Assembly: GCA_963170165.1 (NCBI GenBank)
Contig: CAUJGQ010000096.1
Span: 2,243-66,242, forward strand
Length of the DNA: 64,000 nucleotides
Direction of reading: 5' to 3'
Source of the DNA: Chloroflexota bacterium
GTDB lineage: Bacteria > Chloroflexota > Dehalococcoidia > CAUJGQ01
In this document: positions 10,037-56,137 of the stretch, in pieces
How the letters are laid out: every line of letters begins with the position of its first letter
Position numbering within the stretch: the stretch's first letter is position 1
Made by a program: the position numbers and the translations under genes
The notes under the pieces: model-generated
Database searches by the model: none
What the model saw: only the letters and a program-made list of their open reading frames with translations
Told to the model about the DNA's origin: nothing

Positions 10037-11221
10037 ATGCCGCCGCTGCCTCTGTCCGGAATCCGCGTGCTCGCCCTGGAGCAGGCCGTTGCCGCTCCGC
10101 TTTGCACCCGCCACCTGGCCGACCTGGGCGCTGATGTGATCAAGGTAGAGCGGCCGGACGGTGGCGACTTCGCCCGCGGCTATGACTCGGCGGTGCTCGG
10201 CCTGTCCTCCTGGTGGATCGCCCTTAACGGTGGCAAGCGCTCCATCGCCATCAACCTCAAGGAAGAGCGCGGCCGTCAGATCGTGCGCGACCTGGCAGGG
10301 CAGGCCGCGGTCGTCGTCCAGAACTTCGCGCCGGGGGCGATGGAGCGTCTGGGGCTGGGAGTCGACCAGCTGCGCGCGCGTCACCCATCGCTGATCGCCT
10401 GCGCCATCAGCGGCTACGGCAGCGAAGGCGCGTACGCCGGCCGCAAGGCCTACGATGCCATCCTCCAGGGGGAGACCGGCGTCATCGCCATCACCGGCAC
10501 ACCAGAGCAGCCGGCCAAGTGTGGCGTCTCCATCGTCGATATGGCCACCGGCGTCTACGCCTTCTCCTCGATCCTGGCCGCGCTCTATCAACGCGCGCAG
10601 AGCGGCGAAGGCGCCACCATCCGCACCACGCTCTTCGACTCCGTGGCCGAGTGGATGAATCCCGCGGTGCTCATCTCGCGCGCCGGCCGCCCGCCGCAAC
10701 GGGTGGGGGACCGCCACGCCTCAATCGTGCCCTACGGGCCGTACCAGTGCGGCGGCGGCCGGCGTGTCTTTCTCGCCATTCAAAACGAGCGTGAGTGGCC
10801 GCGGCTGTGCGCCGGGCTGCTGCAACGCCCGGAGCTGGCGGACGACCCGCGATTCCGCAGCAACGAGGCGCGGTTGCTGCATCGTGACGTGCTCGAGCCA
10901 CTGATCGAGGCGATCCTTATCGACGTGCCGCTGGAGGAGTGTGAGGCGCGGCTTGAGGCCGCTGACATCGCCTACGGCCGCGCCAACGAGCCAGCCGCGC
11001 TGCTGGAGCACCCGCACGTGCTGGCCAACGACCGCCTGCGCACCGCCCGCACACCAGCCGGCGCCGTGACGATGCTCAAGCCGCCATTCAACGTGGACGG
11101 CTGGCCCGCGGATGATGTCTCCATCCCTGGCCTGGGGGAGCACACCAATGCCGTGCTGGGCGAACTCGGTTACGACGCGTCCACCATCGCCGCGCTGCAC
11201 GCCACCGGTGTGGTGGCTTGA
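10037..11221 (+). CDS. CoA transferase, family III (CaiB/BaiF/formyl-CoA transferase-like)
   Basis: N-terminal LSGIRVLALEQAVAAPLCTRHLADLGADVIKVERPDGGDFARGYD is the family III signature. AGGAG RBS. Confidence 0.85.
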   Translation: MPPLPLSGIRVLALEQAVAAPLCTRHLADLGADVIKVERPDGGDFARGYDSAVLGLSSWWIALNGGKRSIAINLKEERGRQIVRDLAGQAAVVVQNFAPGAMERLGLGVDQLRARHPSLIACAISGYGSEGAYAGRKAYDAILQGETGVIAITGTPEQPAKCGVSIVDMATGVYAFSSILAALYQRAQSGEGATIRTTLFDSVAEWMNPAVLISRAGRPPQRVGDRHASIVPYGPYQCGGGRRVFLAIQNEREWPRLCAGLLQRPELADDPRFRSNEARLLHRDVLEPLIEAILIDVPLEECEARLEAADIAYGRANEPAALLEHPHVLANDRLRTARTPAGAVTMLKPPFNVDGWPADDVSIPGLGEHTNAVLGELGYDASTIAALHATGVVA

Positions 11222-11429
11222 GCCGGCGCCTGGCACCGGTCCCCGGCTGCGCCCCACTCGGGGCCATGGGGCAGCAGGCACACGTTGAATCCCAGCGCGC
11301 AACCAGGCGGAAAGCTGCGGAACCGACACTCAGCACTCGATACCCGTAGCAGGAAGGATGCTGCCATCGTGTGGCAGGCAAGCGGCGGGGGGTGATACGG
11401 TGCCAGAACAGCGGGCGGGGACCGGATTG

Positions 11430-11849
11430 ATGGATCAACGGTACGCCGGGCAGAGCGTCACCCCACGTGCCCAGCGCATCGACAAGCCGTGGGGTTGGGA
11501 GATCCTGTGGGCGGAGACGCCCCACTACTGCGCCAAGATCCTGCACCTCAACGCGGGCAAGCGCATCAGCCTCCAGTACCACGACCAGAAGCTCGAGTCG
11601 CAGTGTCTGATCAGCGGCCGCTGCCTGCTGCTGATCGAGGACAGCGCAGGCACGCTGCGCGAGATCGAAATGCAGCGCGGCCACGGCTACACCATCAGCC
11701 CGTTTCAGCGTCACCGCCTGATCGCGATCACCGATTGCGAAGTGGTGGAAGCATCCACGCCGGAGACCGGCATCACCTACCGGCTGGAAGACGATTACGC
11801 CCGCCCGGACGAGACCGAAGATGTGCGCCGCCGGCCTGGGCGGGTGTGA
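11430..11849 (+). CDS. cupin domain protein (mannose-6-phosphate-isomerase-type cupin_2)
   Basis: KPWGWEILW cupin motif and the expected size. The start at ATG 11430 was chosen over the longer ORF. Confidence 0.6.
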   Translation: MDQRYAGQSVTPRAQRIDKPWGWEILWAETPHYCAKILHLNAGKRISLQYHDQKLESQCLISGRCLLLIEDSAGTLREIEMQRGHGYTISPFQRHRLIAITDCEVVEASTPETGITYRLEDDYARPDETEDVRRRPGRV

Positions 11850-11991
11850 GACGGCCGGCTGGTTCTGCTCCTCACGCCTCTGGCCGGCGGCCGTCCACGG
11901 CGCTGGACGCTAAGCGGCCGGTACGCCAAGCTTGCCGGCAGGCGGCTGTCCCGCTGACCCGCGCTGTTGCTGTCTTGCTGAGGAGCATCCC

Positions 11992-12783
11992 ATGCCCGAC
12001 GTGCTGTACGAGCGCCGGCGGCGGCTGGCGATCATCACCCTCAACCGGCCGGAGGCGCTCAACGCCCTCAACAGCGGTGTGCGCCAGGGGCTGTTTGACG
12101 CCTTCACCCGGTTCCGTGACGACCCCGACGCCTGGGTGGCGATTGTCACCGGCACCGGCGACCGCGCCTTCTCCGCCGGCGCCGACCTCAAGGAAATGAG
12201 CGCCGGCCGCCAGGCAGAACTAACCGGCGAGCGGGTGGACCCCTTCTGGGAGCCGGACCGTCCTGCGCTCAACCGCGGTCTACCTCTCTGGAAGCCGATC
12301 ATCGCTGCCATCAACGGCTACTGTCTGGCCGGCGGGCTGGAACTGGCGCTGTCCTGCGACATCCGCATCGCCGTCCCCCACGCCCGGTTCGGGCTAACCG
12401 AGGTACTGCGCGGCATCCTCCCCGGCGGCGGCGGCACCCAACGTCTGCCGCGCACTGTCCCCTTCGGCATCGCGCTGGAGCTGATGCTCACCGGCGCACA
12501 CATCGAGGCGGATGAGGCGTACCGCATCGGCCTTGTCAATCACATCGTTCCCGCCGAACGGCTGATGGCGGAGGCCGAAGCTCTGGCTGAGCGCATCTGC
12601 GCCAACGCCCCGCTCTCGACCCGCGCCATCAAAGAAGCCGCCTATCGTGGCATCGGCGTCACGCTGGACGAGGGCCTGCGCATCGAAGCGCTCCTCTCCC
12701 GCATCCTTCGCACGACTGAGGACTCGCGCGAGGGCCCGAAGGCGTTCGCCGAAAAACGCCCGGCGCAGTTCAAGGGCAGATAG
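11992..12783 (+). CDS. enoyl-CoA hydratase/isomerase (crotonase family)
   Basis: FSAGADLKE oxyanion motif and KPIIAAINGYCLAGGLELALSCDIRIA. GAGGAG RBS. Confidence 0.85.
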   Translation: MPDVLYERRRRLAIITLNRPEALNALNSGVRQGLFDAFTRFRDDPDAWVAIVTGTGDRAFSAGADLKEMSAGRQAELTGERVDPFWEPDRPALNRGLPLWKPIIAAINGYCLAGGLELALSCDIRIAVPHARFGLTEVLRGILPGGGGTQRLPRTVPFGIALELMLTGAHIEADEAYRIGLVNHIVPAERLMAEAEALAERICANAPLSTRAIKEAAYRGIGVTLDEGLRIEALLSRILRTTEDSREGPKAFAEKRPAQFKGR

Positions 12784-12912
12784 GCGGCATCCGGCTTCCA
12801 GGAGTCACGCACTTCGTGGAGGTCTGGCCATCGGGGGACAGCCGGCGGGACGCGCCATACGCCCCGCTCTCTCCGGATGCCGGATGTCTGTCACCAGCTG
12901 CGGAGCACGACG

Positions 12913-13419
12913 ATGAATGCCTATTCGGCGATTGTGACCAAGCGCGACACGCGGGCCTTTGCGCCGCGGCCGGTGCCCGATGAGGTCCTGCGGCGCATCC
13001 TGCAAGCAGGACGGATGGCAGGAAGCAGCAAGAACACACAGCCCTGCCGGTTTGTGGTGCTGCGTTCCCCCGAACGGCGGGCGGCGCTGGCGGCCTGTGG
13101 CGACTTCGCCAAGCACATGCCCGATGCGCCACTGTGTATCGCTGTGGTGCTCACCCCCGGTGGCGGGGCGTTTGACGCCGGACGCGCCGCCCAGAACATG
13201 ATGGTGGCCGCCTGGGCCGAGGGCGTCACCTCCTGTCCCACGTCCATGCACCACCCCGCCTGCGCCCGCGAGACGCTCAGCCTGCCGGCGGACCACCACG
13301 TAGCGATCGTCCTGGCAATGGGCTACCCCGCTGCCACCGGCAACGATCGCCCCGGCCGCGCCCGCCTTCCGCTGGACGGCTACGTCCACTGGGAACAGTG
13401 GGACGGCAGGCGGGAGTAA
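12913..13419 (+). CDS. nitroreductase family protein
   Basis: 168 aa with nitroreductase-fold motifs (RRILQAGRMAGSSKNTQPCRFVV). Confidence 0.7.
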   Translation: MNAYSAIVTKRDTRAFAPRPVPDEVLRRILQAGRMAGSSKNTQPCRFVVLRSPERRAALAACGDFAKHMPDAPLCIAVVLTPGGGAFDAGRAAQNMMVAAWAEGVTSCPTSMHHPACARETLSLPADHHVAIVLAMGYPAATGNDRPGRARLPLDGYVHWEQWDGRRE

Positions 13420-13619
13420 CTCTCGTCCGGCCAATCTCGCGATGCCGGTCCCACGCCCGCTTGGCTGCGGGCCGAGCCGGGCGCCCGACGGCGGACCGGG
13501 TCCGATGGCGCGCTCGCGAGCGGCTGGCAGGCCATTGCGCAGAACATGCGCCGCGCCGGCGAGGCGGCCGTCTGGCCACCACTCCGGCGCGGCGCGCGTG
13601 CTCTGTAGGCGGTCGCGGG

Positions 13620-15905
13620 CTACCACACGGCCGGGACTGCGGCCGCGCTGTCGTGCGGCTCGCCGGCCGTGTGGGCGGCGCGCGGCGTGCCTTCGATGTG
13701 GATCTTCGGCAGCCACTCCAGCCAGCGGGGGAAGTACCAGTTCCAGCCGCCCAGCAGCTCCATGCTCGCCGGCACCAGCACCATGCGGATGATGGTGGCA
13801 TCGAGAATGACGGCCACCGCCAGCCCCAGCCCGGCCTGCTGGAAGACCACCAGGTCACCGGAGGCCATCCCGGCGAAGACCGCGACCATGATCAGCGCAG
13901 CTCCGGTGATGATGCTGGCCGTGCTGCGCAGGCCGCTGGCCACCGCCGCCGTGTTGTCCCCCGTCTCATCAAAGTGCTCCTTGATGCGGCTGAGCAGGAA
14001 GACGTGATAGTCCATCGACAGGCCGAACAAGATGGCGAACAGGAACAGCGGCAGCCACGACTCGATCACCGGCGCTTCCTGCAGGCCGAGCAGGTCCGTC
14101 CCGATGCCTTTCTGGAACACCAGCACCAGCACGCCATACGCGGCGCCGACAGATAGCAGGTTCAAGCCCACCGCTTTGAGCGGCACGACGAGGGAGCGGA
14201 ACACCACCAGCAACAGCAGGAAACTGAACCCCAGCACAAAGCCGAACACCCACGGCAGATAGTCGCGCTGCATCTGGACCGAGTCCACCGTCTCCGCCGC
14301 CGGGCCACCAACCAGCACCTCGGCCGCGATGCCGTCAAAGGCAGTAGGGATGTAGCCACCGCGCAGCCGTGCGAGTGCGGCACGAGACTCGGCGCTGGAG
14401 AAGTCACCAGGCATCGCCACGGTCAGCAGTGCCAGGTCGCCGGTGGCGTTCATCTCCAGCTTCACGTCTCCGAAGAAGCCGTCTGACTCCAGTGCGCCAG
14501 TCAGCCGGGCAATGGCGTCCTGAACGGCGGGGTCGTTCACTTGCTGCGCATCGACAACGACATCGGCGGTCAGCACGCCGCTGGAGAACTCCCGGTTGAG
14601 CACGGCGAAGGCGTGGCGGCTGTCGCTGTCCTCGGGCAACGAGCTGATACCGACGCTGCCGAGCTTGATGTCGAGCACCGGCAGCGCCGCGGCCACCAGC
14701 AGGGCACCGGTGGCGACCACGCTGACCACGGGCCGGGCCGTTACCGCCCGGGCGATGCCATCCCACAGCCCGCCGGTGGCGCGGGCCTGCCGCCGGCGGC
14801 CCAGGCGCGGCAGCGACAGCCAGTTGACACGGTCTCCCAGCAGTCCTAGCACAGCTGGGAGCAACGTCATCGCCGCCACCACCGTCGCCGTCACTACCAG
14901 CGTCGCACCGGCGGCGAAACTGCGGAAGGTGGCGTCGGGCATGATCAGCATCCCGCCGAGCGAGATCGCCACTGCCATCCCCGAGAAAGCGACCGTGTGC
15001 CCGGCGGTCGCGCCGGCGGTGGCGACGGCGTCCACCTTGTCGCGGCCGTTGCGGCGCTCCTCGCGAAAGCGCTGGACGAAGAACAACGAGTAGTCGATGC
15101 CAACCGCCAGGCCGATCATCGTCATGATGAAGACGACGAAGGAGGACATCTCCATCACGTTGCTGGCCAGCGCCGTCGCGCCGGTCGCCACGAAGATCGA
15201 CAGCAGCGCGAGCAGAATCGGCAGCCCGGCCGCCACGGCCGCACCGAAAGCGACCAGCAAAATGACGAGCGCCACCACCAGCCCGATCAACTCGCCCTGC
15301 TGCATCGTCTCCGCCAGCAACGTGGACATCTCGCCCTCGACACTGCCGAAGCCGACGGTCGTGACCCGGAACGAACCGGTGTTCGCCGCTTTGACCAGGT
15401 CAACAACTGGGGCGGCGGTATCTGCGGCGTCCGCTTCATCGCCCGAGAGCGTCACCAGGATGAGGGCGGTGTGACCGTCCTGGGAGACCAGGCCCTGGGC
15501 GCCGTCCCGGTAGCTGGCGACGGACGCCACATCCGGTAACGCGCGCAGGTCGGTCGCGAGCGCATCGACGAAGGCCGCAAACGCCACATCATCGGCGGTG
15601 GTAGCCGCGGACTCGACGACGATGTACTCCTCTGGCGGGGTCTGGGGGTGCATGCGCTGCTCAATCAGGTTCTTGGCTCGCGTCGCTTCGGTGCCGGCAG
15701 TGCTGGGGCTGGCCGTCAGGTGCATCGTCCCAGCGGCAAAGTAGGCCAGTGCCAGCAGCACCACCCATAGGCCCAACACACGCCAGGGATGACGCGCCGC
15801 CGCGCCGGCCAGCCGGCCGGTCAGCGGCATCCGCCGGCCAGCCCGCGCCGGGCCGTGCCCCGTTCCTACAATCTGATGCCGCTTGCCCGCATGCGGATCT
15901 GCCAT
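13620..15905 (-). CDS. MMPL family (RND superfamily) transporter
   Basis: About 760 aa with two 6-transmembrane bundles separated by soluble domains and the MMPL-typical GLxxDYxxF motif (GLAVGIDYSLFFVQRF). Start assigned to the ATG at 15905 just before the first transmembrane helix. Confidence 0.75.
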   Translation of the reverse strand: MADPHAGKRHQIVGTGHGPARAGRRMPLTGRLAGAAARHPWRVLGLWVVLLALAYFAAGTMHLTASPSTAGTEATRAKNLIEQRMHPQTPPEEYIVVESAATTADDVAFAAFVDALATDLRALPDVASVASYRDGAQGLVSQDGHTALILVTLSGDEADAADTAAPVVDLVKAANTGSFRVTTVGFGSVEGEMSTLLAETMQQGELIGLVVALVILLVAFGAAVAAGLPILLALLSIFVATGATALASNVMEMSSFVVFIMTMIGLAVGIDYSLFFVQRFREERRNGRDKVDAVATAGATAGHTVAFSGMAVAISLGGMLIMPDATFRSFAAGATLVVTATVVAAMTLLPAVLGLLGDRVNWLSLPRLGRRRQARATGGLWDGIARAVTARPVVSVVATGALLVAAALPVLDIKLGSVGISSLPEDSDSRHAFAVLNREFSSGVLTADVVVDAQQVNDPAVQDAIARLTGALESDGFFGDVKLEMNATGDLALLTVAMPGDFSSAESRAALARLRGGYIPTAFDGIAAEVLVGGPAAETVDSVQMQRDYLPWVFGFVLGFSFLLLLVVFRSLVVPLKAVGLNLLSVGAAYGVLVLVFQKGIGTDLLGLQEAPVIESWLPLFLFAILFGLSMDYHVFLLSRIKEHFDETGDNTAAVASGLRSTASIITGAALIMVAVFAGMASGDLVVFQQAGLGLAVAVILDATIIRMVLVPASMELLGGWNWYFPRWLEWLPKIHIEGTPRAAHTAGEPHDSAAAVPAVW

Positions 15906-16059
15906 GACCGTGCTCCTCTGGTGTGATGCGGGTACTGTCTCGCCTCTGCGCGGCGGAATCGTCGCCACTGCGCCGGATACCGGCTCGTCATCCGGGACGA
16001 TTTCGGTGTCGTTCGCGAGGATGACGGCGGCCACGGCGCCAATGCCGTACGCTCCGCAC

Positions 16060-17217
16060 ATGCAGCGAATTACCTCCATGGCGCGCGGATACTGGTTGGA
16101 GGTCGCCGCGGTGATCGTGGCCCTGCTCAGCGCCACTGAGGTCGCGCTGAGGCAGGATGCAGCGAATGCAACGCGGCTCAGCCCGTGGTTCGCCGTGCCG
16201 GCGGTCGCGCTGATGGTGCTGGTCCTGCTCGGGCGGCGGCGATGGCCGTTCGCGGCGCCGGCGGCGGTGTGGGTGCTGGCCGCCGCGTTGTCGTTTGTCG
16301 ATGGCCGGTTGGTGGTCTTCAGCGCGGCTGCCTCGGTCGCCGGTCTGGCCGCGGCGTTCCTGCTCGGCATGCTGCCGGATGACACGCACGCGCGCATCGG
16401 CCTGCTCCTGGTGTTCGGCGGCGCGGCGATTGTGGTCGCCAACGCGCCGAACAGCGACGCTGGCGACTATCTCTTTCTTCCGGTCATGTTCGTGATGCCA
16501 TGGCTGGGCGGACTGGCGCTCCAGCAGCGCAACACCCGCATCGACGCAGCTGAGTTGCGCGCTGCGCGGCTTGCCCGCGGTCGGGAAGAGGCGACCCAGC
16601 AGGCCATCGCCGGCGAGCGACGACGCATCGCGCGGGAACTGCACGACGTCCTCGGCCACAGTGTCAGCGTGATGACGATTCAGGCCGCGGCCGTGCGCCG
16701 GCGGCTCTCGCCGGAGCAGACCAAGGAGCAGGAGGCCCTGCTTGCGGTCGAACAGACCGGCCGGGAGGCGCTGACGGAGATGCGCCGGCTCGTCGGCCTG
16801 CTGCGCCTGGCCGGCGACACCCCCGAGCTGGAACCGCAGCCGGGTCTGGGGCAGCTGGAGAAACTGACGCATCAGGCGCGTGACGCCGGGCTGGAGGTTG
16901 ACGTGCGGGTAGAGGGGCAGCGGGTGTCACTGCCGCCGGGCCTCGATCTGACCGCCTACCGGCTGGTGCAGGAGGGGTTGACGAATGCACGCAAACACGG
17001 TGCTGCCCGCCGCGCCGAGGTGCTGCTGCGGTACGATCCGGACGCCATCGAGATCGCGGTGTGCGACGACGGGCGGGGCGCCATGGCCGGGCATGCAGAC
17101 GGCTACGGGCTGATCGGCCTGCGCGAGCGGGTGTCCATCTATGGTGGTGAGCTTGAGGCAGGTCCGCGGATCGGTGGCGGCTACCGGCTGCGGGCACGCC
17201 TGCCGGTGTCATCATGA
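16060..17217 (+). CDS. sensor histidine kinase, HisKA_3 (NarX/DesK/LiaS type)
   Basis: Transmembrane N-terminal half. H-box RIARELHDVLGHSVSVM and HATPase_c motifs (EGLTNARKHG, DDGRG, GYGLIGLRER). The start could be 16060 or 16078. Confidence 0.75.
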   Translation: MQRITSMARGYWLEVAAVIVALLSATEVALRQDAANATRLSPWFAVPAVALMVLVLLGRRRWPFAAPAAVWVLAAALSFVDGRLVVFSAAASVAGLAAAFLLGMLPDDTHARIGLLLVFGGAAIVVANAPNSDAGDYLFLPVMFVMPWLGGLALQQRNTRIDAAELRAARLARGREEATQQAIAGERRRIARELHDVLGHSVSVMTIQAAAVRRRLSPEQTKEQEALLAVEQTGREALTEMRRLVGLLRLAGDTPELEPQPGLGQLEKLTHQARDAGLEVDVRVEGQRVSLPPGLDLTAYRLVQEGLTNARKHGAARRAEVLLRYDPDAIEIAVCDDGRGAMAGHADGYGLIGLRERVSIYGGELEAGPRIGGGYRLRARLPVSS

Positions 17218-17885
17218 GCGCGATTCGGGTGCTGGTGGTCGATGATCAGGCGCTGGTGCGCGCCGGCTTCCGCATGATCTTGGAGGCGGAGCCGGAGCTC
17301 GAGGTCGCCGGCGAGGCGGCAGACGGTGTCGAAGCGATTGCCGCCGTCCAGCGCCTGCGGCCCGATGTCGTGCTGATGGATGTGCGGATGCCCAACCTCG
17401 ATGGCATCACCGCCACCCGCCGCATCCTCGAAGGTGGCAGCGCCACGAGGGTGCTGATGCTCACCACTTTTGACCTGGATGAGTACGTGTACGAGGCGCT
17501 GCGCGCCGGCGCGAGCGGTTTCCTGCTCAAGGATGTGCCGCCGGAACGGCTGATCGCCGGCATCCGCGCGGTGGCTGCCGGCGAGTCACTCCTGGCGCCA
17601 TCGGTGACGCGCCGGCTGATCGAGGCGTACGTACGCCGGCAGCCTTCGCGCACGCTGCCGGCCGGCATCGAGGACCTTACGGCACGCGAGCGCGAGGTGC
17701 TGACGCTGATGGCGCGCGGCCTCTCTAACGCCGAGATCGCCGAAGCCTTTGTCGTGAGCGAAACGACCGTCAAGACCCACGTGGCCCGCGTGCTGGCCAA
17801 GCTTGGACTCCGAGACCGCGTGCAGGCGGTCGTATTCGCCTATGAATACGGGCTGATCCAGCCGGGAGAACGCACGAGCGGCTGA
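17214..17885 (+). CDS. response regulator, NarL/FixJ (LuxR-HTH) family
   Basis: Receiver domain (VLVVDDQ, MDVRMP) plus C-terminal LuxR HTH (LTAREREVLTLMARGLSNAEIAEAFVVSETTVKTH). 4-nt overlap with the kinase gene. Confidence 0.9.
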   Translation: MSAIRVLVVDDQALVRAGFRMILEAEPELEVAGEAADGVEAIAAVQRLRPDVVLMDVRMPNLDGITATRRILEGGSATRVLMLTTFDLDEYVYEALRAGASGFLLKDVPPERLIAGIRAVAAGESLLAPSVTRRLIEAYVRRQPSRTLPAGIEDLTAREREVLTLMARGLSNAEIAEAFVVSETTVKTHVARVLAKLGLRDRVQAVVFAYEYGLIQPGERTSG

Positions 17886-18392: not shown

Positions 18393-19721
18393 GTGCAATA
18401 CCGCGGCCTCGCGGGGGGCATCACCCTGCCACGTTGCGCCGTTCGCCGTTACACTGCCCGCGTGGCGAGCACTCCTGCACGAACGACCAGCGCACCCGCG
18501 GATGCGCCCCCGCCAGGCGGGACGTTTGCGGCGCTGCGCGTGCCGTACTATCCCCGGCTGTGGCTGTCTGGCTGGCTGTGGAACATGACCCGGTGGATGT
18601 CGGTGTTCCTGTGCAGCTACCTGATCAACGCATTCACCGGCTCTCCCCTCCTTGTCCAGCTGGCCGGCACGGCCTTCTTCGCACCGATGTTCTTCGGCGG
18701 TGTGCTGGGCGGGGTCATCTCCGACCGCTTTGACCGGCGGCGGACCATCATGCACCAACTGGCGGTGCTCACGCCGGTGGCAGCACTTATGGGTTGGCTG
18801 GTGCTGTCCGGCGCCGTGCGCGTGTGGATGATCTACCCGTTTATGCTCGCCATCGGCATGGGTGGGGTGCTGGATATGACCAGCCGCCGGGCGCTGCTGT
18901 ATGACCTGGTGGGCCCGGTTCGCATCACCAACGCCATGGCGCTGGAGTCGATGGCGCAGACCGGCGGCACGATGCTCGGCACGTTGATCGGCGGCACGAT
19001 GATCAACTTCATCGGCCTGGGACAGGCCTTCATGCTGATCGCCATCGCCTATGCCGCCGCCTGGCTGGCGATGGCAGGGATGCCCTCCCCCGCGCGGGAG
19101 AGCGCACCACTGCGGGGCACATCCCTGCGGCGCGATGTGGCTGAAGGGCTGGCATACGTCCGCCGCACGCCGGCCATCGTTTCCATCCTCGGCGTGACGA
19201 TGCTCATGAACTTCTTCTTCTTTTCGTACATGCCGATGGTGCCGGTCTTCGCCGAACGGCTGGGAGTCAACGCCTTTTGGGCGGGGGTGCTGGGCAGCGC
19301 CACTGGAGCCGGCTCGATCTGCGGCGCCTTTGTGATCGCGGCGCACGTACCACACCGCGCCGCGCGTGGACTGGTGTACACCGCCGGCTCGGCCGTGGCG
19401 ATGGTATGCCTGCTGCTGTTCACCGCCGCGTCCTGGTACCCGCTGGCGCTACTGGCGCTGATCGCCGCGGGGTTCGGCCAGTCTGGCTTCGGGGCGTTGC
19501 AGGGGGCGCTGATCCTGACTGCTTCGTCGCCGGAGATGCGCGGCCGGGCAATGGGTATTCTCAGCATGGCCATCGGCGTGCTGCCCTTCGGCATGTTCCT
19601 GCTGGGTCTCGCCGCGCAGCGCGCCGGGCCCGCCGTCGCCGTCGCCGCCAGCACCACCCTTGGTCTGGCGCTGCTGCTGCTCTGGTGGCGGCGCCACCCG
19701 CTGCTCAGCTCGCTGCGCTAA
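18393..19721 (+). CDS. MFS transporter
   Basis: 12 predicted transmembrane helices with an MFS-like layout. The start is uncertain because no convincing RBS was seen. A GTG near 18541 is an alternative. Confidence 0.65.
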   Translation: MQYRGLAGGITLPRCAVRRYTARVASTPARTTSAPADAPPPGGTFAALRVPYYPRLWLSGWLWNMTRWMSVFLCSYLINAFTGSPLLVQLAGTAFFAPMFFGGVLGGVISDRFDRRRTIMHQLAVLTPVAALMGWLVLSGAVRVWMIYPFMLAIGMGGVLDMTSRRALLYDLVGPVRITNAMALESMAQTGGTMLGTLIGGTMINFIGLGQAFMLIAIAYAAAWLAMAGMPSPARESAPLRGTSLRRDVAEGLAYVRRTPAIVSILGVTMLMNFFFFSYMPMVPVFAERLGVNAFWAGVLGSATGAGSICGAFVIAAHVPHRAARGLVYTAGSAVAMVCLLLFTAASWYPLALLALIAAGFGQSGFGALQGALILTASSPEMRGRAMGILSMAIGVLPFGMFLLGLAAQRAGPAVAVAASTTLGLALLLLWWRRHPLLSSLR

Positions 19722-19847: not shown

Positions 19848-21071
19848 ATGGTGGATTTCACCCTCTCTCCGGAAATCAAGGACCTCCGGCGGCGCGTCGC
19901 CGCCTTCATGAAAGAGCACGTCTACCCCAACGAATCAGCGCTGAGCCACGAAGATGAGGCGGGCGAAGCGCTGATGCGCGACCTTCAGCAAAAGGTCCGC
20001 GACCAGGGGATGTGGGCGCTGTTCATCGGCCCGGAGGCAGGCGGCAACGGGCAGGGCTTTCTGCCGTATGCCTACATCAACGAGCTGCTGGGCCGCAGCC
20101 CGGTGGCGCCGCGGGTGTTCGGCTGTCAGGCGCCGGACACCGGCAACGCCGAGATCCTGCATATGTTCGGCACGCCCGAGCAGCAGGAACGGTGGATGAA
20201 GCCGTTGATCGCCGGCCAGATCCGCTCCTGCTTCTCGATGACGGAGCCGGCCGTCTCCGGTGCGGACCCCGTCAACCTGCAGAGCAACGCCGTGCGCGAC
20301 GGGGACGAGTGGGTGATCAACGGCCGCAAGTGGTTCAGCAGCTCTGCCGACGGCGCCGCCTTCGCCATTGCCATGGTGACGACCGACCCGGAAGCGCCAC
20401 CCCACCGGCGTATGAGCCAGATCATCGTTCCCACGGATGCCCCGGGCTTCCACCTCGTGCGCAACATCTCGGTGATGGGCCACACCGGCGCCGGTCACAG
20501 CAGCCACGGTGAGGTGGTGTATGACAACTGCCGCGTGCCGGTGACGAATACGCTCGGTAACCCCGGCGACGGCTTCCTGATTGCGCAGAAGCGGCTGGGG
20601 CCGGGGCGCATCCATCACTGCATGCGCTGGCTGGGGCAGGCGCAGCGGGCCTTCGAGCTGCTCTGCCGCCGCGCCCTCACCCGCGAAGCCTTCGGCGGCC
20701 CGCTGGCGGAGAAACAGACCGTCCAAAACTGGATCGCTGACTCGGTGGCGGAGATTCAGGCTTGCCGGCTGCTCACCCAGCATGCCGCCGCCAAAATCGA
20801 TAGCGGCGAGGATGCCCGCGTCGAGATCTCGCTGATCAAGTTCTACGGCGCCACCATGCTGCACAACGTCATCGACCGTGCCATCCAGGTACACGGCGCC
20901 TTGGGCGTCACCGATGACACACCGCTGGCGAGCATGTACCGCCAGGCCCGCTCCGCCCGCATCTATGACGGCCCGGACGAGGTGCACCGCATGGTCGTCG
21001 CCCGCCGCATCCTGCGCGCCTTCCAGGCCAGCGCCGACGTCTCCTACCTGCAAGCCATGGGTGAGTGGTAG
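19848..21071 (+). CDS. acyl-CoA dehydrogenase family protein (LvaC/ACAD10-11-like candidate)
   Basis: ACAD N/M/C architecture (FSMTEPAVSGADP, IYDGPDEVHRMVVARRIL). AGGAGG RBS. Followed directly by an APH-type kinase. Confidence 0.85.
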   Translation: MVDFTLSPEIKDLRRRVAAFMKEHVYPNESALSHEDEAGEALMRDLQQKVRDQGMWALFIGPEAGGNGQGFLPYAYINELLGRSPVAPRVFGCQAPDTGNAEILHMFGTPEQQERWMKPLIAGQIRSCFSMTEPAVSGADPVNLQSNAVRDGDEWVINGRKWFSSSADGAAFAIAMVTTDPEAPPHRRMSQIIVPTDAPGFHLVRNISVMGHTGAGHSSHGEVVYDNCRVPVTNTLGNPGDGFLIAQKRLGPGRIHHCMRWLGQAQRAFELLCRRALTREAFGGPLAEKQTVQNWIADSVAEIQACRLLTQHAAAKIDSGEDARVEISLIKFYGATMLHNVIDRAIQVHGALGVTDDTPLASMYRQARSARIYDGPDEVHRMVVARRILRAFQASADVSYLQAMGEW

Positions 21072-21146
21072 CGCCTATCGTGTCGTGCGTAGCGTGTGGA
21101 GCTGCCGCGCTGCGCATGACGAACGTCGCAATTCCTCCGGTGCGTT

Positions 21147-22196
21147 ATGAATGAGTTTCCGGACTTTGGCGGGTTGCTGGATATCGCGGCGCTCGGCCGT
21201 TATCTGGCAGAACATGTGGCGGGCAATGACGCGCCGCTGCTGGTGGAAAAGCACTCGGCCGGCTTCTCCAACGAGACGTTCTACATCACACGCGGTGGTC
21301 AGCACTGGGTGCTACGGCGGCCGCCGCGCGGGGTGTTCCTGCCAACGGCGCACGACGTGGTGCGCGAGTACCGCGTGATGCGGGCGCTGCAGGATGCCAA
21401 GGTGCGCGTACCGCGGATGGTCGTGGCCTGCACCGACAGCAGCGTCATCGGCGCGCCGTTCTACGTCATGGAGCGCGTGGCGGGCGAGGTCATCCGCGAG
21501 GAGATGCCCGCGGCGCTGGACACGCCCGAGGAGCGCCGCCGCGTCTCCGAGGAGATGATCGACGCGCTGGCCGAGCTGCACGCGGTCGATTACCGGGCCG
21601 TGGGGCTGGAGGGACTGGGCCGGCCGGCGGGCTACCTGGAACGTCAGATCCGCCGGTGGAGCGGCCAGCTCGAGCTGACCTTGCAGCGCACCCGGCCGCT
21701 ACCCGGCCTGGAGTCTGCCACGCACTGGCTGACCGAGCACCTACCGGCGTCCGGCCCGCCCGCCATCGTCCACGGCGATTTCAAGCCGGACAACGTCATC
21801 TTCTCGGCGGCTCCACCGGCGCGGCTGCTGGCCATCCTCGACTGGGAGATGGCGACCATCGGTGACCCGCTGGCAGACCTGGGCTGGCTGCTCTCCTACT
21901 GGACCGAGCCGGGTGAGCAGCCGGAGGATGTGCCGCCCGGCATCAACATGCTCGACACCACCCAACCCGGCTTCCTCAACCGGGCGGAGATGATCGCGCG
22001 GTACGAGCAACACACCGGCCGTTCGATGCAGCACGTATCGTTCTATCTGTGCCTGGCCGTGTGGAAGCTGGCAATCATCCTGGAAGGGCTGTACGCCCAC
22101 TACCTCGATGGCACTGCCAGTAACCCGCGCACCGCCGAGTTCGAGTGGCGGGTGCCGCACGAGATCGCCCGCATCGAGCGCATCATCAATGGCTAA
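21147..22196 (+). CDS. phosphotransferase enzyme family protein (APH/ChoK kinase fold)
   Basis: Brenner motif HGDFKPDNVIF and DWEMATIGDP. 349 aa. Confidence 0.8.
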   Translation: MNEFPDFGGLLDIAALGRYLAEHVAGNDAPLLVEKHSAGFSNETFYITRGGQHWVLRRPPRGVFLPTAHDVVREYRVMRALQDAKVRVPRMVVACTDSSVIGAPFYVMERVAGEVIREEMPAALDTPEERRRVSEEMIDALAELHAVDYRAVGLEGLGRPAGYLERQIRRWSGQLELTLQRTRPLPGLESATHWLTEHLPASGPPAIVHGDFKPDNVIFSAAPPARLLAILDWEMATIGDPLADLGWLLSYWTEPGEQPEDVPPGINMLDTTQPGFLNRAEMIARYEQHTGRSMQHVSFYLCLAVWKLAIILEGLYAHYLDGTASNPRTAEFEWRVPHEIARIERIING

Positions 22197-22213
22197 CCGC
22201 ACGGGAGTAACCG

Positions 22214-22981
22214 ATGGACCCTAACGGGCGGGTGGCGGTGGTAACCGGAGCCGGTTCCGGCATCGGCCGGGCGATTGCCCTGCTGCTTGGGCGCGCGGGC
22301 GCGCGGGTGGTGGCCGCTGACCTGAACGGGCAGGCCGCCGAGGAGACCGCGCAGTCCATCCGCGAGGCAGCCGGCGCGGCACTGGCCCTGCGCGCGGATG
22401 TCACCATCGAAGACGACGTGGCACGAATGCTATCGTTCGCGCGGGAGCGGTTCGGCGGGCCGGACATCCTCTGCAACAACGCCGGGCTGGGGGAGCTACC
22501 GGATGAACTGTTCGGCGGCGGGCCGGGCGCAGGCTGGCGGCGGTTGGTGGACGTCAATCTCGCCGCCGTCATCCTCGGCACGCGCCTGGGGGCGCTGGCG
22601 ATGCGTGAGACGGGCGGCGGCGTGATCATCAACACTGCCTCGATGGGCGGGCTGCTACCCATGCCCTACGCCCCGGTCTACGCCGCCACCAAGGCGGCTG
22701 TCGTCCACTTCACCCGCTCTCTCGCGGGCCTGCGCGAGGAGATGAATGTCCGTGTCAACGCTATCTGCCCCAGCTATGTAGACACGCCGCTCCTCTGGGC
22801 CGGGACTGAGCAGCAACGCCGGGAGACGGAGCAGCGGACCGCGGCCCTCGGCGGCGCGCTCTCTCCCGAGCTGATCGCTGAGGGTGTGCTCGAACTGGTG
22901 CGTGACGACGGCCGCGCCGGTGCGATTCTGCGCGCCACCCAGGCCCGGGGGCTGGACTACGCGCGGGAGATCCACGCGTGA
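22214..22981 (+). CDS. SDR family oxidoreductase
   Basis: TGAGSGIGRAIA motif, YAATKAA active site, and NAICPS. Confidence 0.85.
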   Translation: MDPNGRVAVVTGAGSGIGRAIALLLGRAGARVVAADLNGQAAEETAQSIREAAGAALALRADVTIEDDVARMLSFARERFGGPDILCNNAGLGELPDELFGGGPGAGWRRLVDVNLAAVILGTRLGALAMRETGGGVIINTASMGGLLPMPYAPVYAATKAAVVHFTRSLAGLREEMNVRVNAICPSYVDTPLLWAGTEQQRRETEQRTAALGGALSPELIAEGVLELVRDDGRAGAILRATQARGLDYAREIHA

Positions 22982-23024
22982 CAGGCATCCGGCGGGCGCC
23001 GCGAGACCCGCAAGGGACACCACC

Positions 23025-24035
23025 ATGGACGAAGCAGAACTACAAGAACGGCTAACCGCGCTGGCCCGGTCGAAGACTGGGGACGGGCAGGCGGAGGTGA
23101 CCGCGGTTCAAGCGATGCCGGGCCACGCCGGATTCTCCTGGGGCTTTGCGCTGACGCACCGCGGCGGGACGGAGCGGCTGGTGCTGCGCCTGCCACCGCC
23201 GGGCGTGCGCTGGGTGGGCACCGCCGACATCGTGCGGCAGGCGCGCGTGATGCAGGCGCTCGCCGGTTCCGCCGTACCCGTGCCCGCGGTGCGCTGGACC
23301 GGCGATGAGCTGGAGTGGTTCGAGCGGCCGTATTACGTGGTGGAGCAGCTGCCCGGCGTCACCCTCTGGTTTCGCACGCCGGATGGGGAGCCCATCGCCT
23401 ACGACGCCGGTGATCTGCAATCCCGCGCCGAGCAGGTGACACGGGCGCTGGCTGACCTCCATGCGCTCGACTGGCGCGAAGTCATGCCGGCATGGGACGC
23501 GCCTCTATCGCTGGAAGAAGAGGTGATTCGCTGGGACTGGCTGCATTCGCGGACGGCGGACCCTGAGTTGACCGCGCTGGCGCCGGCGGTGCGCGAGCGG
23601 CTGCTGTCTGGCGTACCTTCGGTGGGGCGGCAGGGCATCGTTCATGGCGACTATCAGTGGACGAACCACCTGTTCCACGAGGGGCGCCTGCAGGCCGTGC
23701 TTGACTGGGAGCTGGCCACTGCCGGCGACGTCCGCATGGACGCCGGCTGGCTGCTGACGTTCAGCGACCGGAAGAACTGGACCGGCTTTGGCTCCTGGGA
23801 GGCGCCGCTGCCATCGCCGGAGGTGATTATCGCCATGTACGAGCGGGCGTCCGGCCACACGGTGGCGGACCTACCGTGGTTCCGGGCGCTGGCGGGCTAT
23901 AAGTTCGCGCTGATCACCGGCCTCAACCTCAGCCTGCACCGTAAGGGGCGGCGGGTAGACCCGCACTGGGAGATGCTCGCTCCCTCGGCGCCGTTGCTGC
24001 TGGCGCGGGCGCAGGAACTGCTCGGTTCAGGCTGA
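23025..24035 (+). CDS. phosphotransferase enzyme family protein (APH-like, second copy)
   Basis: HGDYQWTNHLF and DWELATAGD motifs. Start assigned to ATG 23025 with an AAGGGA RBS. Confidence 0.75.
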   Translation: MDEAELQERLTALARSKTGDGQAEVTAVQAMPGHAGFSWGFALTHRGGTERLVLRLPPPGVRWVGTADIVRQARVMQALAGSAVPVPAVRWTGDELEWFERPYYVVEQLPGVTLWFRTPDGEPIAYDAGDLQSRAEQVTRALADLHALDWREVMPAWDAPLSLEEEVIRWDWLHSRTADPELTALAPAVRERLLSGVPSVGRQGIVHGDYQWTNHLFHEGRLQAVLDWELATAGDVRMDAGWLLTFSDRKNWTGFGSWEAPLPSPEVIIAMYERASGHTVADLPWFRALAGYKFALITGLNLSLHRKGRRVDPHWEMLAPSAPLLLARAQELLGSG

Positions 24036-24109: not shown

Positions 24110-25117
24110 ATGACCGCCGCCCGCCTCGGATTCTCGTTGCCGCTCGCCGGGGTGCCGCTCGGCGAGCACCGCGCGCCACTGCAGGAGGCGGAGCGGCTGG
24201 GCTACACCGACGCCTGGAGCCTGGAGGTAGACGGCACGGACGCCTTCACGCCGCTGGCCGTCGCCGCCGCCTGGACCACGCGGATGCGCCTGGGTACCGC
24301 CATCGCCAACACCTTCACCCGCGGGCCGGCCACCCTGGCGCAATCGGCGCTGGGCATGGCAGAGGCCGCGCCAGGGCGGTTCGTGCTCGGACTGGGGACA
24401 TCGTCCGAGGCGATCGTGCGTGACTGGAACGGCGGGACGTTCACCCGGCCGCTGGCGCGTACCCGCGACGTGATGGCGCTGGTGCAGCAGGCGCTCACTG
24501 GCGGGCGGGTGAGCGAGACGCGCCCAGACGCCTCGATGCAGGGCTTCCGCCTGTCGCGCCCGGTCCCGGGCACAATACCGGTGTACCTGGCAGCCCTACG
24601 CTCCGGGATGCTACGGCTGGCGGGTGAGCGCGCGGACGGGGTGATCATCAACTGGCTCACACCGAAAGATGTGCCGGTGGTGGTGGACATCGCCCGCGAG
24701 GCGGCGCGCGCTGCCGGGCGCGACCCCGATGCACTGGAGGTGGCCTGCCGTATCTTCGTCTGCATGCATGATGACTTGGAGACGGCGCGGGCGATGGCTC
24801 GTCGCACCATCGCCGGCTATCTCACCGTGCCAGTGTACCGCCACTTTCATGAGTGGCTGGGCAATCATCACTTGCTCGGCGGCATGTGGGAGAAGTGGGA
24901 GGCGGGCGACCGCCGCGGTGCGCTCGCCTCCCTCTCCGACGACGCCATCGATCAGCTGTTCGCCGTCGGTGACGCCGGCCGCTGCCGTGCCGCCGTCCAG
25001 CGCTGGGTCGAGGCCGGTGTGCAGGCGCCGATTATGTACTTCCAGCCCGCCGCCACCGACGAGGAGGGCATGGGGCGCGAGTCGCTGGCGATGCTGCGCG
25101 CCCTGGCGCCGGCGTGA
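24110..25117 (+). CDS. LLM class (luciferase-like) F420-dependent oxidoreductase
   Basis: TIM-barrel LLM signature (FSLPLAGVPLGEH...LGYTDAWSLE...RLGTAIANTFTRGPATLAQSA...LGLGTS). Confidence 0.8.
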   Translation: MTAARLGFSLPLAGVPLGEHRAPLQEAERLGYTDAWSLEVDGTDAFTPLAVAAAWTTRMRLGTAIANTFTRGPATLAQSALGMAEAAPGRFVLGLGTSSEAIVRDWNGGTFTRPLARTRDVMALVQQALTGGRVSETRPDASMQGFRLSRPVPGTIPVYLAALRSGMLRLAGERADGVIINWLTPKDVPVVVDIAREAARAAGRDPDALEVACRIFVCMHDDLETARAMARRTIAGYLTVPVYRHFHEWLGNHHLLGGMWEKWEAGDRRGALASLSDDAIDQLFAVGDAGRCRAAVQRWVEAGVQAPIMYFQPAATDEEGMGRESLAMLRALAPA

Positions 25118-41038: not shown

Positions 41039-41075
41039 TCCGGATGCCGAGTCTTCGTACCTTTGGCTGGCACCA

Positions 41076-49403: not shown

Positions 49404-49449
49404 GCGGCGCCGGCCTGCCTGCAGGCTGCCCCCGTGAGAGGAGCGAGTG

Positions 49450-56127: not shown

Positions 56128-56137
56128 CTCCGGCCCC

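Follow-up and report, generated by a model that had tools for sequence, protein, structure and literature searches.

A split ACAD10/11-like acyl-CoA dehydrogenase and kinase cluster with a second kinase, predicted to act in the catabolism of 4-hydroxy acids

An intriguing question is raised by bacterial gene clusters in which an acyl-CoA dehydrogenase (ACAD) is found next to kinases of the aminoglycoside-phosphotransferase (APH) fold: do such genes encode a route for 4-hydroxy acids, or are they unrelated neighbors? We analyzed one such cluster in a 64,000-nt stretch of DNA (the window), the host of which is probably a member of the Chloroflexota. The original prediction had likened its ACAD-APH-SDR-APH block to the levulinate (Lva) pathway and to mammalian ACAD10/11, and this reading was supported. 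All four ORFs were recovered on one strand with the predicted Pfam families (Table 1), and their coding GC3 was 0.84-0.88. The co-directional unit exceeds this four-gene block, with an MFS transporter upstream of the ACAD and an F420-class LLM oxidoreductase downstream of the second kinase (APH2). From the MFS gene through ACAD, APH1, SDR and APH2 to the LLM gene, the gaps were 126, 75, 17, 43 and 74 nt, the second of these agreeing with the spacing of within 76 bp first given, and the gene after the LLM gene lies on the opposite strand. As judged from the sequence, the most likely APH2 start is the ATG at 23025 (336 aa) rather than the GTG at 22884, which would give a 98-nt overlap with the SDR gene; the APH2 orthologue in the related locus L002 starts 11 nt past its SDR gene.

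Table 1. Coordinates of the cluster genes and upstream genes in the window, with their family matches.
Feature	Position	Strand	Family match
Family III CoA-transferase	10037-11221	+	CoA_transf_3, E 5e-107
163-aa protein accompanying the CoA-transferase	11358-11849	+	no Pfam match in the window copy
Enoyl-CoA hydratase	11932-12783	+	ECH_1, E 4e-65
HisKA_3 histidine kinase	15883-17217	+	Pfam/NCBIfam
LuxR-type response regulator	17214-17885	+	Pfam/NCBIfam
MFS transporter	18393-19721	+	Pfam MFS_1/MFS_3
ACAD	19848-21071	+	Pfam Acyl-CoA_dh_N/M/1
APH1 kinase	21147-22196	+	PF01636, E 5e-54
Classical SDR	22214-22981	+	adh_short, E 2e-50
APH2, second APH-fold kinase	23025-24035	+	PF01636, E 5e-28
F420-class LLM	24110-25117	+	Bac_luciferase, E 1e-64; TIGR03841

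In the PDB comparison, the best solved relative of the window ACAD was mouse ACAD11 (323 bits, E 1.5e-95), with 43% identity to its residues 378-767, and human ACAD11 scored 313 bits. Conventional ACADs reached at most 203 bits, a gap of 120 bits to mouse ACAD11, and, in line with the original prediction, the protein did not cluster with ordinary short- or medium-chain ACADs. Residues 249-260 (RLGPGRIHHCMR) contain the phosphate-binding 'HCMR' motif of the ACAD10/11-LvaC clade. Here R249, H257 and R260 aligned with ACAD11 R626, H634 and R637, any one of which abolishes turnover of the phospho-intermediate when mutated (PMC12440821), and ACAD11 R631 was also kept. Asp374, within YDGPDEVH, corresponds to ACAD11 D753 and replaces the usual catalytic Glu. 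Every residue that Rashan et al. 2025 (PMC12440821) describe as confined to ACAD10/11 and LvaC was present. From this profile, the window ACAD is predicted to be a FAD-dependent 4-phosphoacyl-CoA phosphate eliminase that would yield 2-enoyl-CoA.

The first kinase, APH1, grouped with the ACAD11 kinase domain and with 3dxp and 9o56, both bacterial homologues of the ACAD10 kinase, in scores and in a neighbor-joining (NJ) tree. Its PDB matches were 9o56 (E 2e-77, 41% identity), 3dxp (3e-66) and the ACAD11 kinase domain (1e-52, 34% identity), and the viomycin and gentamicin kinases reached about E 1e-4. APH1 carried the HGDFKPDN (ACAD11 D220/N225) and DWE motifs and kept the two Arg residues that are modelled to contact CoA. 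APH1 is accordingly classed by homology as a predicted ATP-dependent 4-hydroxyacyl-CoA 4-kinase of the ACAD10/11 N-terminal type. The earlier expectation that neither kinase clusters with the antibiotic or homoserine type held, with the caveat that APH2 belongs to a different clade and its ACAD11 match is weak (4e-9).

It is extremely improbable that the ACAD is an ordinary beta-oxidation enzyme lying by chance beside antibiotic-resistance or homoserine-type kinases. This reading would fit the public annotation of homologues as 'acyl-CoA dehydrogenase family protein' and 'phosphotransferase family protein', as well as the weak, below-cut-off NCBIfam matches of APH1 to APH(3') (3e-9), homoserine kinase (6e-4) and thiamine kinase. 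However, the sequence data already contradict it, through the bit-score gap to ordinary ACADs, the catalytic Asp, the HCMR motif, the far stronger matches of APH1 to ACAD10/11-type kinases than to antibiotic kinases, and an adjacency that is conserved across phyla.

This adjacency was assessed among ACAD relatives from Chloroflexota, Actinomycetota, Acidobacteriota, Myxococcota, Bacillota and other groups. Three independent metagenome relatives shared the ACAD-APH1-SDR-APH2 order (L002/L003, L093 and L094, the contigs of the latter two ending within APH2), and L002/L003, whose ACAD is 83% identical to that of the window, also retain both flanking genes, MFS on the upstream side and LLM on the downstream side. 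Among 62 more distant loci in which 2.5 kb or more of sequence flanks the ACAD relative on each side, an APH-fold kinase was found within 2.5 kb in 38, and an APH1-type kinase stood beside the ACAD in 35; we would informally put the chance level of such adjacency at about 1%. Motif counts across these loci are not independent evidence, because the search patterns that recovered several of them themselves contained the motifs. Some close ACAD relatives had no kinase nearby (L004, 75% identity). Acyl-CoA genes were found among the neighbors in related loci, such as a thiolase and an AMP-ligase in L017.

A different reading would make APH1, and perhaps APH2, lipid kinases for 1-O-alkylglycerol or monoacylglycerol, with the cluster serving membrane or ether-lipid salvage. 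Such an activity was recently reported for the ACAD10 kinase domain, and according to a 2026 preprint (PMC13596139) prokaryotic homologues of this kinase act on 1-O-alkylglycerols, several of them phosphorylating chimyl alcohol in a reaction that acetyl-CoA stimulates; the structure solved there, of a Caldalkalibacillus thermarum protein, is probably 9o56, the top PDB match of APH1. An APH2-clade gene in L091 also overlaps a CDP-alcohol phosphatidyltransferase gene. We nevertheless regard this reading as quite unlikely. The sole known role of the HCMR/Arg motif carried by the adjoining ACAD is 4-phosphoacyl-CoA handling, the kinase and ACAD are neighbors in most of the loci counted and across phyla, and ether-lipid genes such as AGPS were not found in the window. 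Both of the modelled CoA-contact Arg residues are kept in APH1, and stimulation by acetyl-CoA would be expected from a CoA-binding site. The C. thermarum homologue shares the DWE motif with APH1 but has an ether lipid, not an acyl-CoA, as its proposed substrate, while APH1 is operonic with a predicted phosphate-eliminating ACAD.

The 4-hydroxyacyl-CoA reading extends less directly to APH2, which is 32% identical to APH1, matched 3dxp with E 1e-15 and reached no NCBIfam model at cut-off. Its VLR, HGDYQWTN and DWE motifs were intact, the alphaC Glu was replaced by Gln, and no equivalent of the putative CoA-contacting ACAD11 R176 was found in the alignment. The NJ tree placed it in a separate clade, sister to the ACAD10/11-type kinases. 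On these grounds APH2 is predicted to be a second hydroxyacyl-CoA kinase with a different specificity.

Alternatively, the ACAD and APH1 alone may form the 4-hydroxyacyl-CoA module, with the SDR, APH2 and LLM genes being a co-transcribed module for another acyl-CoA or alcohol; in that case the SDR could act as a 3-hydroxyacyl-CoA dehydrogenase, and APH2 could phosphorylate some other hydroxylated compound. The distinct clade of APH2 and its missing R176 equivalent point in this direction, as do the weak enrichment of SDR and LLM genes near the ACAD and the failure of the SDR and APH2 to reach any NCBIfam cut-off. All five of the other APH2-clade members at 44-50% identity had no ACAD within 5 kb, and their contexts were varied, such as SDR-APH2-MaoC (L089) and AMP-ligase-APH2-sulfatase (L092). 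However, the short-gapped order of the four genes is kept in the three relatives, and an APH2-type kinase is the sole kinase beside the ACAD in five other loci (L011, L013, L035, L038 and L096/L097), one of them a minimal two-gene unit in Tepidiforma (L011). LLM genes are also found again immediately next to the ACAD in L007, L018 and Thermoleophilia loci, and we consider the two-part division unlikely.

The SDR itself matched only generic SDRs in the PDB. Its position was kept in L002/L003, L093 and L094, and SDR genes were also found beside the kinase-ACAD pair in Burkholderia multivorans, Gordonia L062 and L072; the enrichment near the ACAD is weak because an SDR lay within 2.5 kb in only 9/62 loci. 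It is a candidate NAD(P)H-dependent 4-oxoacyl-CoA reductase with an LvaD-like role, or alternatively a candidate 3-hydroxyacyl-CoA dehydrogenase. The LLM, one of three in the window, where the presence of such an oxidoreductase had been noted, scored 268 bits against TIGR03841 (Rv3093c subfamily; cut-off 213.65), and its closest solved structures are F420-dependent (Mer, hydroxymycolate dehydrogenase and FGD). An LLM of this subfamily also adjoins the ACAD in L002, L007 (an ECH-LLM-ACAD operon) and L018, and a different F420-LLM subfamily (TIGR03559) does so in the Thermoleophilia loci. An LLM near the ACAD was weakly enriched (10/62 loci, mostly from one lineage), and the window LLM is a candidate 4-oxo/4-hydroxy redox enzyme. 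The MFS gene immediately precedes the ACAD gene in the window, L001 and L002/L003 (68% identity in L002/L003), and probably encodes the substrate transporter of the operon.

Taken together, the genes likely form an operon for the catabolism of 4-hydroxy acids, and probably also of 4-oxo acids, with a split form of the two-step ACAD10/11 (LvaA/LvaC) reaction at its center. We have rather firmer confidence in its core steps, from APH1 to ACAD to enoyl-CoA hydratase, which are proposed from homology and motifs. APH1 would transfer phosphate from ATP to the 4-hydroxyl group of a 4-hydroxyacyl-CoA, and the 4-phosphate would be held by Arg249, His257 and Arg260 of the ACAD. The ACAD would then eliminate the phosphate, with Asp374 serving as the base and FAD acting transiently as redox cofactor, and release 2-enoyl-CoA, which an ordinary enoyl-CoA hydratase could pass into beta-oxidation. 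Around this core, the MFS protein may carry the acid across the membrane, and the family III CoA-transferase, 8.6 kb upstream, may form the CoA thioester instead of LvaE. Interconversion of 4-oxoacyl-CoA and 4-hydroxyacyl-CoA might fall to the SDR, using NAD(P)H, to the F420-dependent LLM or to both, a step modelled on LvaD acting on levulinyl-CoA. APH2 may feed the same ACAD as a second hydroxyacyl-CoA kinase, perhaps for substrates that differ in stereochemistry, chain length or the position of the hydroxyl. The core is an already known kind of system, and the dual-kinase and F420-LLM architecture is a modest variant, in which only the second divergent kinase and the F420-type oxidoreductase are new.

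Mammalian ACAD11 and ACAD10 fuse a 4-hydroxyacyl-CoA kinase to a 4-phosphoacyl-CoA eliminase (PMC12440821, PMC11342911). Both folds are shared by the window ACAD and APH1, which are two separate genes rather than one polypeptide; the cluster has neither the HAD domain of ACAD10 nor organelle targeting, and adds the second divergent kinase, SDR, F420-type LLM and MFS. Separate bacterial kinase and ACAD proteins carry out the two reactions in Pseudomonas putida and B. pseudomallei (PMC11342911, PMC6692424). For P. putida lvaABCDE (Rand et al. 2017), the comparison draws on summaries in PMC6692424, PMC12440821 and PMC11342911, and the link to the window rests on these published statements and the direct ACAD11 comparison. 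Both systems have a separate kinase, an ACAD-family eliminase and an SDR in one operon, although lvaABCDE is proteobacterial and the window cluster differs from it in having a pair of kinases and an F420 LLM. Counterparts of LvaB, LvaE and LvaR were not found in the block: no intergenic gap in the cluster is large enough for LvaB (12 kDa), the family III CoA-transferase stands upstream instead of the LvaE acyl-CoA synthetase, and a two-component system is found upstream in place of the sigma-54 regulator LvaR.

The B. pseudomallei LvaA/LvaC orthologues (Q63VL1 and its partner kinase) can replace the ACAD10 domains in vitro (PMC11342911), and these split bacterial proteins are nearer to ACAD10/11 than is P. 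putida LvaA. In the homologous B. multivorans locus, the ACAD and kinase are 46% and 39% identical to the window proteins, and the order kinase-SDR-SDR-ACAD indicates that SDRs travel with the pair there too. The Burkholderia locus differs from the window in gene order and SDR number, and lacks both a second kinase clade and an F420 LLM.

A third APH and ACAD pair had been proposed at 54511-59557, but the two genes, 2.7 kb apart on opposite strands, are not a pair of the ACAD10/11 type. The supposed kinase (54511-55602, - strand) belongs to the EcKL family, and the supposed ACAD (58352-59557, + strand) is an SfnB/DszC-like flavoprotein that showed no significant similarity to the ACAD of the cluster (blastp E 1.9); HIT, thioesterase, pentapeptide-repeat and peroxiredoxin genes lie between them.

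The family III CoA-transferase that had been noted was confirmed by its CoA_transf_3 match, and is a possible CoA-activation step. Its L002/L003 orthologue, with 73% identity, is followed by a counterpart of the adjacent small gene, and both stand directly upstream of MFS-ACAD; between these two parts the window thus seems to have gained an insertion, which comprises the enoyl-CoA hydratase, nitroreductase, MMPL, histidine kinase and response regulator genes. The two-component pair is on the same strand as the MFS gene, ends 508 nt upstream of it and is absent from the L002/L003 cluster; it possibly regulates the operon, although its membership is doubtful. The small gene encodes a 163-aa protein that is 70% identical to the product of the L002 gene at 8061-8483, for which only a weak cupin (MannoseP_isomer) match was recorded. 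The enoyl-CoA hydratases reported for the window were both recovered, the second at 50793-51302. The upstream one is a candidate for the downstream step on the 2-enoyl-CoA product; its position is not conserved in L002, and in L007 an ECH gene immediately precedes LLM-ACAD.

The four genes grouped into one block by the original prediction, namely an acyl-CoA dehydrogenase (ACAD), an APH-fold kinase (APH1), an SDR, and a second APH-fold kinase (APH2), were all recovered on the forward strand of the window (GC of approximately 68%), with strong third-position GC bias and the Pfam families that had been named. The extent of the block did not stand as proposed, however, because the co-directional unit is longer and takes in an MFS transporter gene upstream and a luciferase-like (LLM) oxidoreductase gene downstream. 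The gaps along this MFS-ACAD-APH1-SDR-APH2-LLM unit measure 126, 75, 17, 43, and 74 nt, and the glyoxalase and helicase genes downstream of it lie on the opposite strand. It was noted that the mechanically called APH2 ORF, with its start at 22884, shares 98 nt with the SDR gene, while starting from the in-frame ATG at 23025 yields a protein of 336 aa in agreement with the orthologue in a relative. Scanning 17.8-25.7 kb for promoters and terminators was uninformative, giving no promoter-like site and a single terminator-like site, within APH1, which is below the shuffled expectation. Rfam and tRNA scans of the whole window gave no matches.

Features of the window, in order of position
Feature	Position (nt)	Strand	Remark
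P450	6267-7673		
Family III CoA-transferase	10037-11221		
Small protein accompanying CoA-transferase	11358-11849		
Apparent insertion	11932-17885		Between CoA-transferase/small-protein pair and MFS-ACAD operon, relative to L002/L003 (83% relative)
Nitroreductase	12877-13419		Within apparent insertion
MMPL transporter, 940 aa	13620-16442	-	Within apparent insertion
MFS transporter	18393-19721	+	Upstream end of co-directional unit
ACAD	19848-21071	+	Three ACAD domains (Pfam)
APH1	21147-22196	+	APH family, E 5e-54 (Pfam)
SDR	22214-22981	+	adh_short, E 2e-50 (Pfam)
APH2	23025-24035	+	APH family, E 5e-28 (Pfam)
LLM-class F420-dependent oxidoreductase	24110-25117	+	TIGR03841, 268 bits against a cut-off of 213.65
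Low-GC island	36722-41921	-	Four co-directional genes
STK_OB kinase	36722-38569	-	E 6e-170
PP2C phosphatase	38566-39318	-	E 1e-63
TerY/VWA protein	39302-41038	-	E 5e-229
TerY/VWA protein	41076-41921	-	E 1e-94
LLM	49447-50487		
574-aa protein	52738-54462	+	Marginal NYN domain
EcKL-family kinase	54511-55602	-	
SfnB/DszC-like flavoprotein	58352-59557	+	
TIGR03560 F420-LLM	59846-60781	-	Beyond the flavoprotein

Against all PDB sequences, the top matches of the ACAD were mouse ACAD11 (8v3u; 323 bits, E 1.5e-95) and human ACAD11 (2wbi; 313 bits), with the Mycobacterium abscessus homologue 4hr3 also among the best, compared to 203 bits for the highest-scoring conventional ACAD. Identity to the ACAD domain of mouse ACAD11 was 43%. 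The mammalian kinase-ACAD fusions ACAD10 and ACAD11, together with LvaC of the Pseudomonas putida levulinate operon, are set apart from other ACADs by a catalytic Asp (D753) that replaces Glu and by three residues that bind the 4-phosphate (Rashan et al. 2025, PMC12440821). The latter, R626, H634, and R637, make up the 'HCMR' motif and share a helix beside the catalytic base, and their mutants lose turnover (PMC12440821). In the residue alignment, ACAD residues 249-260 (RLGPGRIHHCMR) matched ACAD11 626-637 (likewise RLGPGRIHHCMR) column by column, and on a recount R249, R254, H257, and R260 corresponded to R626, R631, H634, and R637. The YDGPDEVH stretch of the same alignment faces LADGPDEVH of ACAD11, placing Asp374 at D753. 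Clustering with ordinary short- or medium-chain ACADs, named in the original prediction as the outcome that would speak against it, was ruled out both by the scores and by these conserved ACAD10/11-type residues. The protein can be assigned on this basis to the ACAD10/ACAD11/LvaC clade as a predicted 4-phosphoacyl-CoA eliminase. Characterized enzymes of this clade turn 4-phosphoacyl-CoA into 2-enoyl-CoA with FAD and no external electron acceptor, and do not act on plain acyl-CoAs.

The two kinases were found to differ in their relation to ACAD11. APH1 matched PDB entries 9o56 (E 2e-77) and 3dxp (3e-66) and the ACAD11 kinase domain (1e-52), compared to 6e-5 to 4e-4 for viomycin and gentamicin kinases. 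It carries the HGDFKPDN motif (ACAD11 D220/N225), the DWE metal-binding motif, and both Arg residues modelled as CoA contacts (VREYR, LERQIR). These contacts, one beside the alphaC Glu and the other R176, are known from MD modelling alone; the published 'R86' disagreed with our own count, and the first Arg was mapped by its place beside the alphaC Glu. APH2 shares 32% identity with APH1 and 25-26% with ACAD11, 3dxp, and 9o56, with PDB matches of 1e-15 for 3dxp and 4e-9 for ACAD11, and its catalytic motifs (HGDYQWTN, DWE) are intact. The APH2 clade as a whole keeps the first Arg, has Gln for the alphaC Glu, and possesses no R176 equivalent. A neighbor-joining tree of 52 kinases placed APH1 in one clade with the ACAD11 kinase domain, 3dxp, 9o56, and 9fsg, and APH2 and its relatives in a separate sister clade. 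No paper was found on the 9fsg structure, a moderate match of both kinases. The scores (1e-52 to 2e-77 for APH1, against approximately 1e-4 for antibiotic kinases) ruled out identity as antibiotic-resistance or homoserine kinases, an identity that the original prediction had named as speaking against it. APH2 falls outside the ACAD10/11-type clade. An antibiotic-kinase function, or a chance juxtaposition of the genes, is contradicted by the sequence data and was considered extremely improbable.

We sought relatives of the ACAD and assessed which genes accompany them. The closest homologues, at 82-83% identity, came from Chloroflexota and Dehalococcoidia metagenome bins, and an identical copy was encountered on a short Logan contig. 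In the 83% relative (L002/L003), the genes run colinearly as CoA-transferase III, small protein, MFS, ACAD, APH1, SDR, APH2, and LLM. The window differs in that the CoA-transferase and small protein are parted from the MFS gene by what appears to be an insertion, with genes for an enoyl-CoA hydratase, a nitroreductase, an MMPL transporter, and a two-component system (HisKA_3/LuxR). The ACAD-APH1-SDR-APH2 order was kept in two more metagenome contigs (L093 and L094; 77-91% identity), while one ACAD relative at 75% was solitary, counter to a general linkage rule. A scan of species-representative genomes yielded 80 loci from many phyla (ACAD identity 50-69%), and linkage was counted in the 62 that had 2.5 kb or more of sequence on each side. 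An APH-fold kinase lay within 2.5 kb of the ACAD in 38 of the 62 (35 APH1-type, 3 APH2-type). Because the retrieval patterns contained RIHHCMRW and YDGPDEVH, the motif census over the 80 loci is not independent evidence. An LLM was found near the ACAD in 10/62 loci and an SDR in 9/62, an enrichment too weak and too tied to one lineage for strong evidence.

Homology, motif conservation, and gene linkage together make it likely that APH1 is a 4-hydroxyacyl-CoA kinase and that the ACAD acts as a 4-phosphoacyl-CoA eliminase yielding 2-enoyl-CoA. The MFS protein would transport the acid and the CoA-transferase would activate it, while the SDR and/or the LLM may interconvert its 4-oxo and 4-hydroxy forms; the characterized F420-LLMs nearest to the window LLM include secondary-alcohol and hydroxymycolate dehydrogenases. 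APH2 could serve as a second kinase of differing specificity. The main rival is that APH1-type kinases are lipid kinases, as a 2026 preprint reports phosphorylation of 1-O-alkylglycerols, stimulated by acetyl-CoA, for kinases of the ACAD10 type, prokaryotic members among them (PMC13596139). However, the ACAD in the operon has a phosphate-binding site, and the kinase-ACAD linkage extends across phyla, so we regard a lipid-kinase role as quite improbable here. A second rival, that the SDR, APH2, and LLM form a module separate from ACAD-APH1, appears unlikely.

The preferred assignment, a hydroxyacyl-CoA kinase paired with an eliminase, was compared with the characterized systems. ACAD10/11 carry both final steps, phosphorylation and elimination, in a single protein, and each ACAD10 domain can be replaced by separate Burkholderia pseudomallei proteins (PMC11342911). 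Whereas the eukaryotic proteins are fused, the kinase and ACAD of the window are separate ORFs with a stop codon and 75 nt between them; the pairing that had been likened to ACAD10/11 is present here as split genes, an arrangement known in bacteria. The gene order at a Burkholderia multivorans locus is kinase-SDR-SDR-ACAD. For P. putida, PMC6692424 describes LvaE as yielding levulinyl-CoA, LvaD as reducing it to 4-hydroxyvaleryl-CoA, LvaA/LvaB as phosphorylating the latter, and LvaC as turning the phosphoester towards 3-hydroxyvaleryl-CoA. The 12 kDa LvaB stands beside the kinase in P. putida, but the intergenic gaps of the window unit are too short for an LvaB-like ORF (approximately 100 aa) and none was found in them; the same source states that LvaB is also missing from P. 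citronellolis (PMC6692424). The window SDR, a classical SDR at a conserved position and a candidate for the LvaD role, matched only generic SDR models. Neither an LvaE-type AMP-binding gene nor a sigma-54 activator (LvaR) was found among the Pfam-scanned ORFs, most but not all of those in the window, and in their place the window has the family III CoA-transferase and the HisKA_3/LuxR pair. The second kinase of a distinct clade, the F420-type LLM, and the probable Chloroflexota host are further differences. NCBIfam holds no Lva model, and the proposed link to Lva runs through ACAD11 and published statements. Judged by sequence, the core belongs to the known ACAD10/11-LvaA/C system in its split bacterial form, and the cluster is a modest variant of it.

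The less ordinary features are the second kinase clade pairing with the same ACAD and the recurrent F420-dependent LLM. The ACAD has an APH2-type protein as its sole neighboring kinase in L011 (Tepidiforma), L013, two Dormibacterota bins (L035 and L038), and L096/L097, and in L011 the two form a two-gene unit flanked by unrelated genes. None of five APH2-clade members at 44-50% identity had an ACAD within 5 kb, with two sitting amid acyl-CoA genes. General ACAD linkage of this clade was not supported, and the linkage is confined to certain lineages. Two of the five, at 47-50% identity, had contexts that hint at other phospho-acyl-CoA chemistry. In L092 (797-6008), the kinase overlaps or abuts an acyl-CoA ligase, with an LLM and then an APH1-type kinase 3 kb upstream, and in L089 (4233-6497), an SDR-kinase-MaoC dehydratase unit adjoins thiolase and CoA-transferase genes.

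TIGR03841 LLMs, the subfamily of the window LLM, were found beside the ACAD in the Chloroflexota loci L007 (ECH-LLM-ACAD) and L018. The Thermoleophilia/Gaiellaceae loci (L012, L014-L017, L019, L022) have another gene order, with an APH1-type kinase (+), a TIGR03559 F420-LLM (-), and the ACAD (+, at locus position ~10000). Nearby genes encode a thiolase, an AlgH-like protein, a Zn-dehydrogenase, and an acyl-CoA ligase, and approximately 7 kb downstream there is another ACAD, of the ordinary kind. The association between F420-LLMs and this ACAD type in these loci is an independent one.

The ACAD10 kinase favors the R isomer approximately fourfold (PMC11342911), which makes a stereo-complementary second kinase conceivable. 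We tentatively propose, as a minority possibility, that the APH2 clade is an unrecognized second hydroxyacyl-CoA kinase lineage partnering the ACAD10/11-type eliminase, and that the two kinases, the NAD(P)-SDR, and the F420-LLM form a stereo- and redox-convergent funnel of R- and S-4-hydroxyacyl-CoA and 4-oxoacyl-CoA into one ACAD. The substrates would derive, for example, from opened gamma-lactones or oxidized lipids. Such a funnel, if real, would give cofactor F420 a part in the breakdown of 4-hydroxy acids by Chloroflexota and Thermoleophilia. The second kinase and the LLM are testable leads on substrate or stereochemical breadth and on a possible role of F420 in the pathway.

To our knowledge, the route that takes 4-hydroxy acids through phosphorylation and elimination was elucidated just between 2017 and 2025, and in Pseudomonas, Burkholderia, and mammals only. 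The core alone would not surprise a specialist. Homologues are publicly annotated in generic terms ('acyl-CoA dehydrogenase family protein', 'phosphotransferase family protein'), and the locus lends such pairs, widespread in uncultured Chloroflexota, Thermoleophilia, Acidobacteriota, Myxococcota, and others, a specific functional prediction. It bears on the use of lactone-derived, lipid-peroxidation-derived, and levulinate-type carbon by soil and sediment bacteria, and is an enzyme source for engineered levulinate or gamma-valerolactone conversion.

Other parts of the window were also examined. A third APH and ACAD pair had been proposed towards its far end, but the genes there, on opposite strands, encode an EcKL-family kinase and a flavoprotein resembling SfnB/DszC, which are not an ACAD10/11-type pair. 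Four unrelated genes (HIT, acyl-CoA thioesterase, pentapeptide-repeat, and AhpC) lie between them, and the flavoprotein has no significant similarity to the ACAD. The CoA-transferase, enoyl-CoA hydratases, and LLM named as possible feeders are present, with one CoA-transferase, two enoyl-CoA hydratases, and three LLM genes in the 64 kb, at least two of the latter in F420-dependent subfamilies. Together with three SDRs and a P450, this paralogue-rich oxidative repertoire suggests that the host is a generalist degrader of oxidized organic acids. The sole match of the 574-aa protein was a marginal NYN domain (E 8e-5, slightly under the gathering score). The low-GC island (57-63%, compared to approximately 68% elsewhere) was probably acquired horizontally, and its genes fit a candidate anti-phage system, the TerY-P triad of PADLOC.
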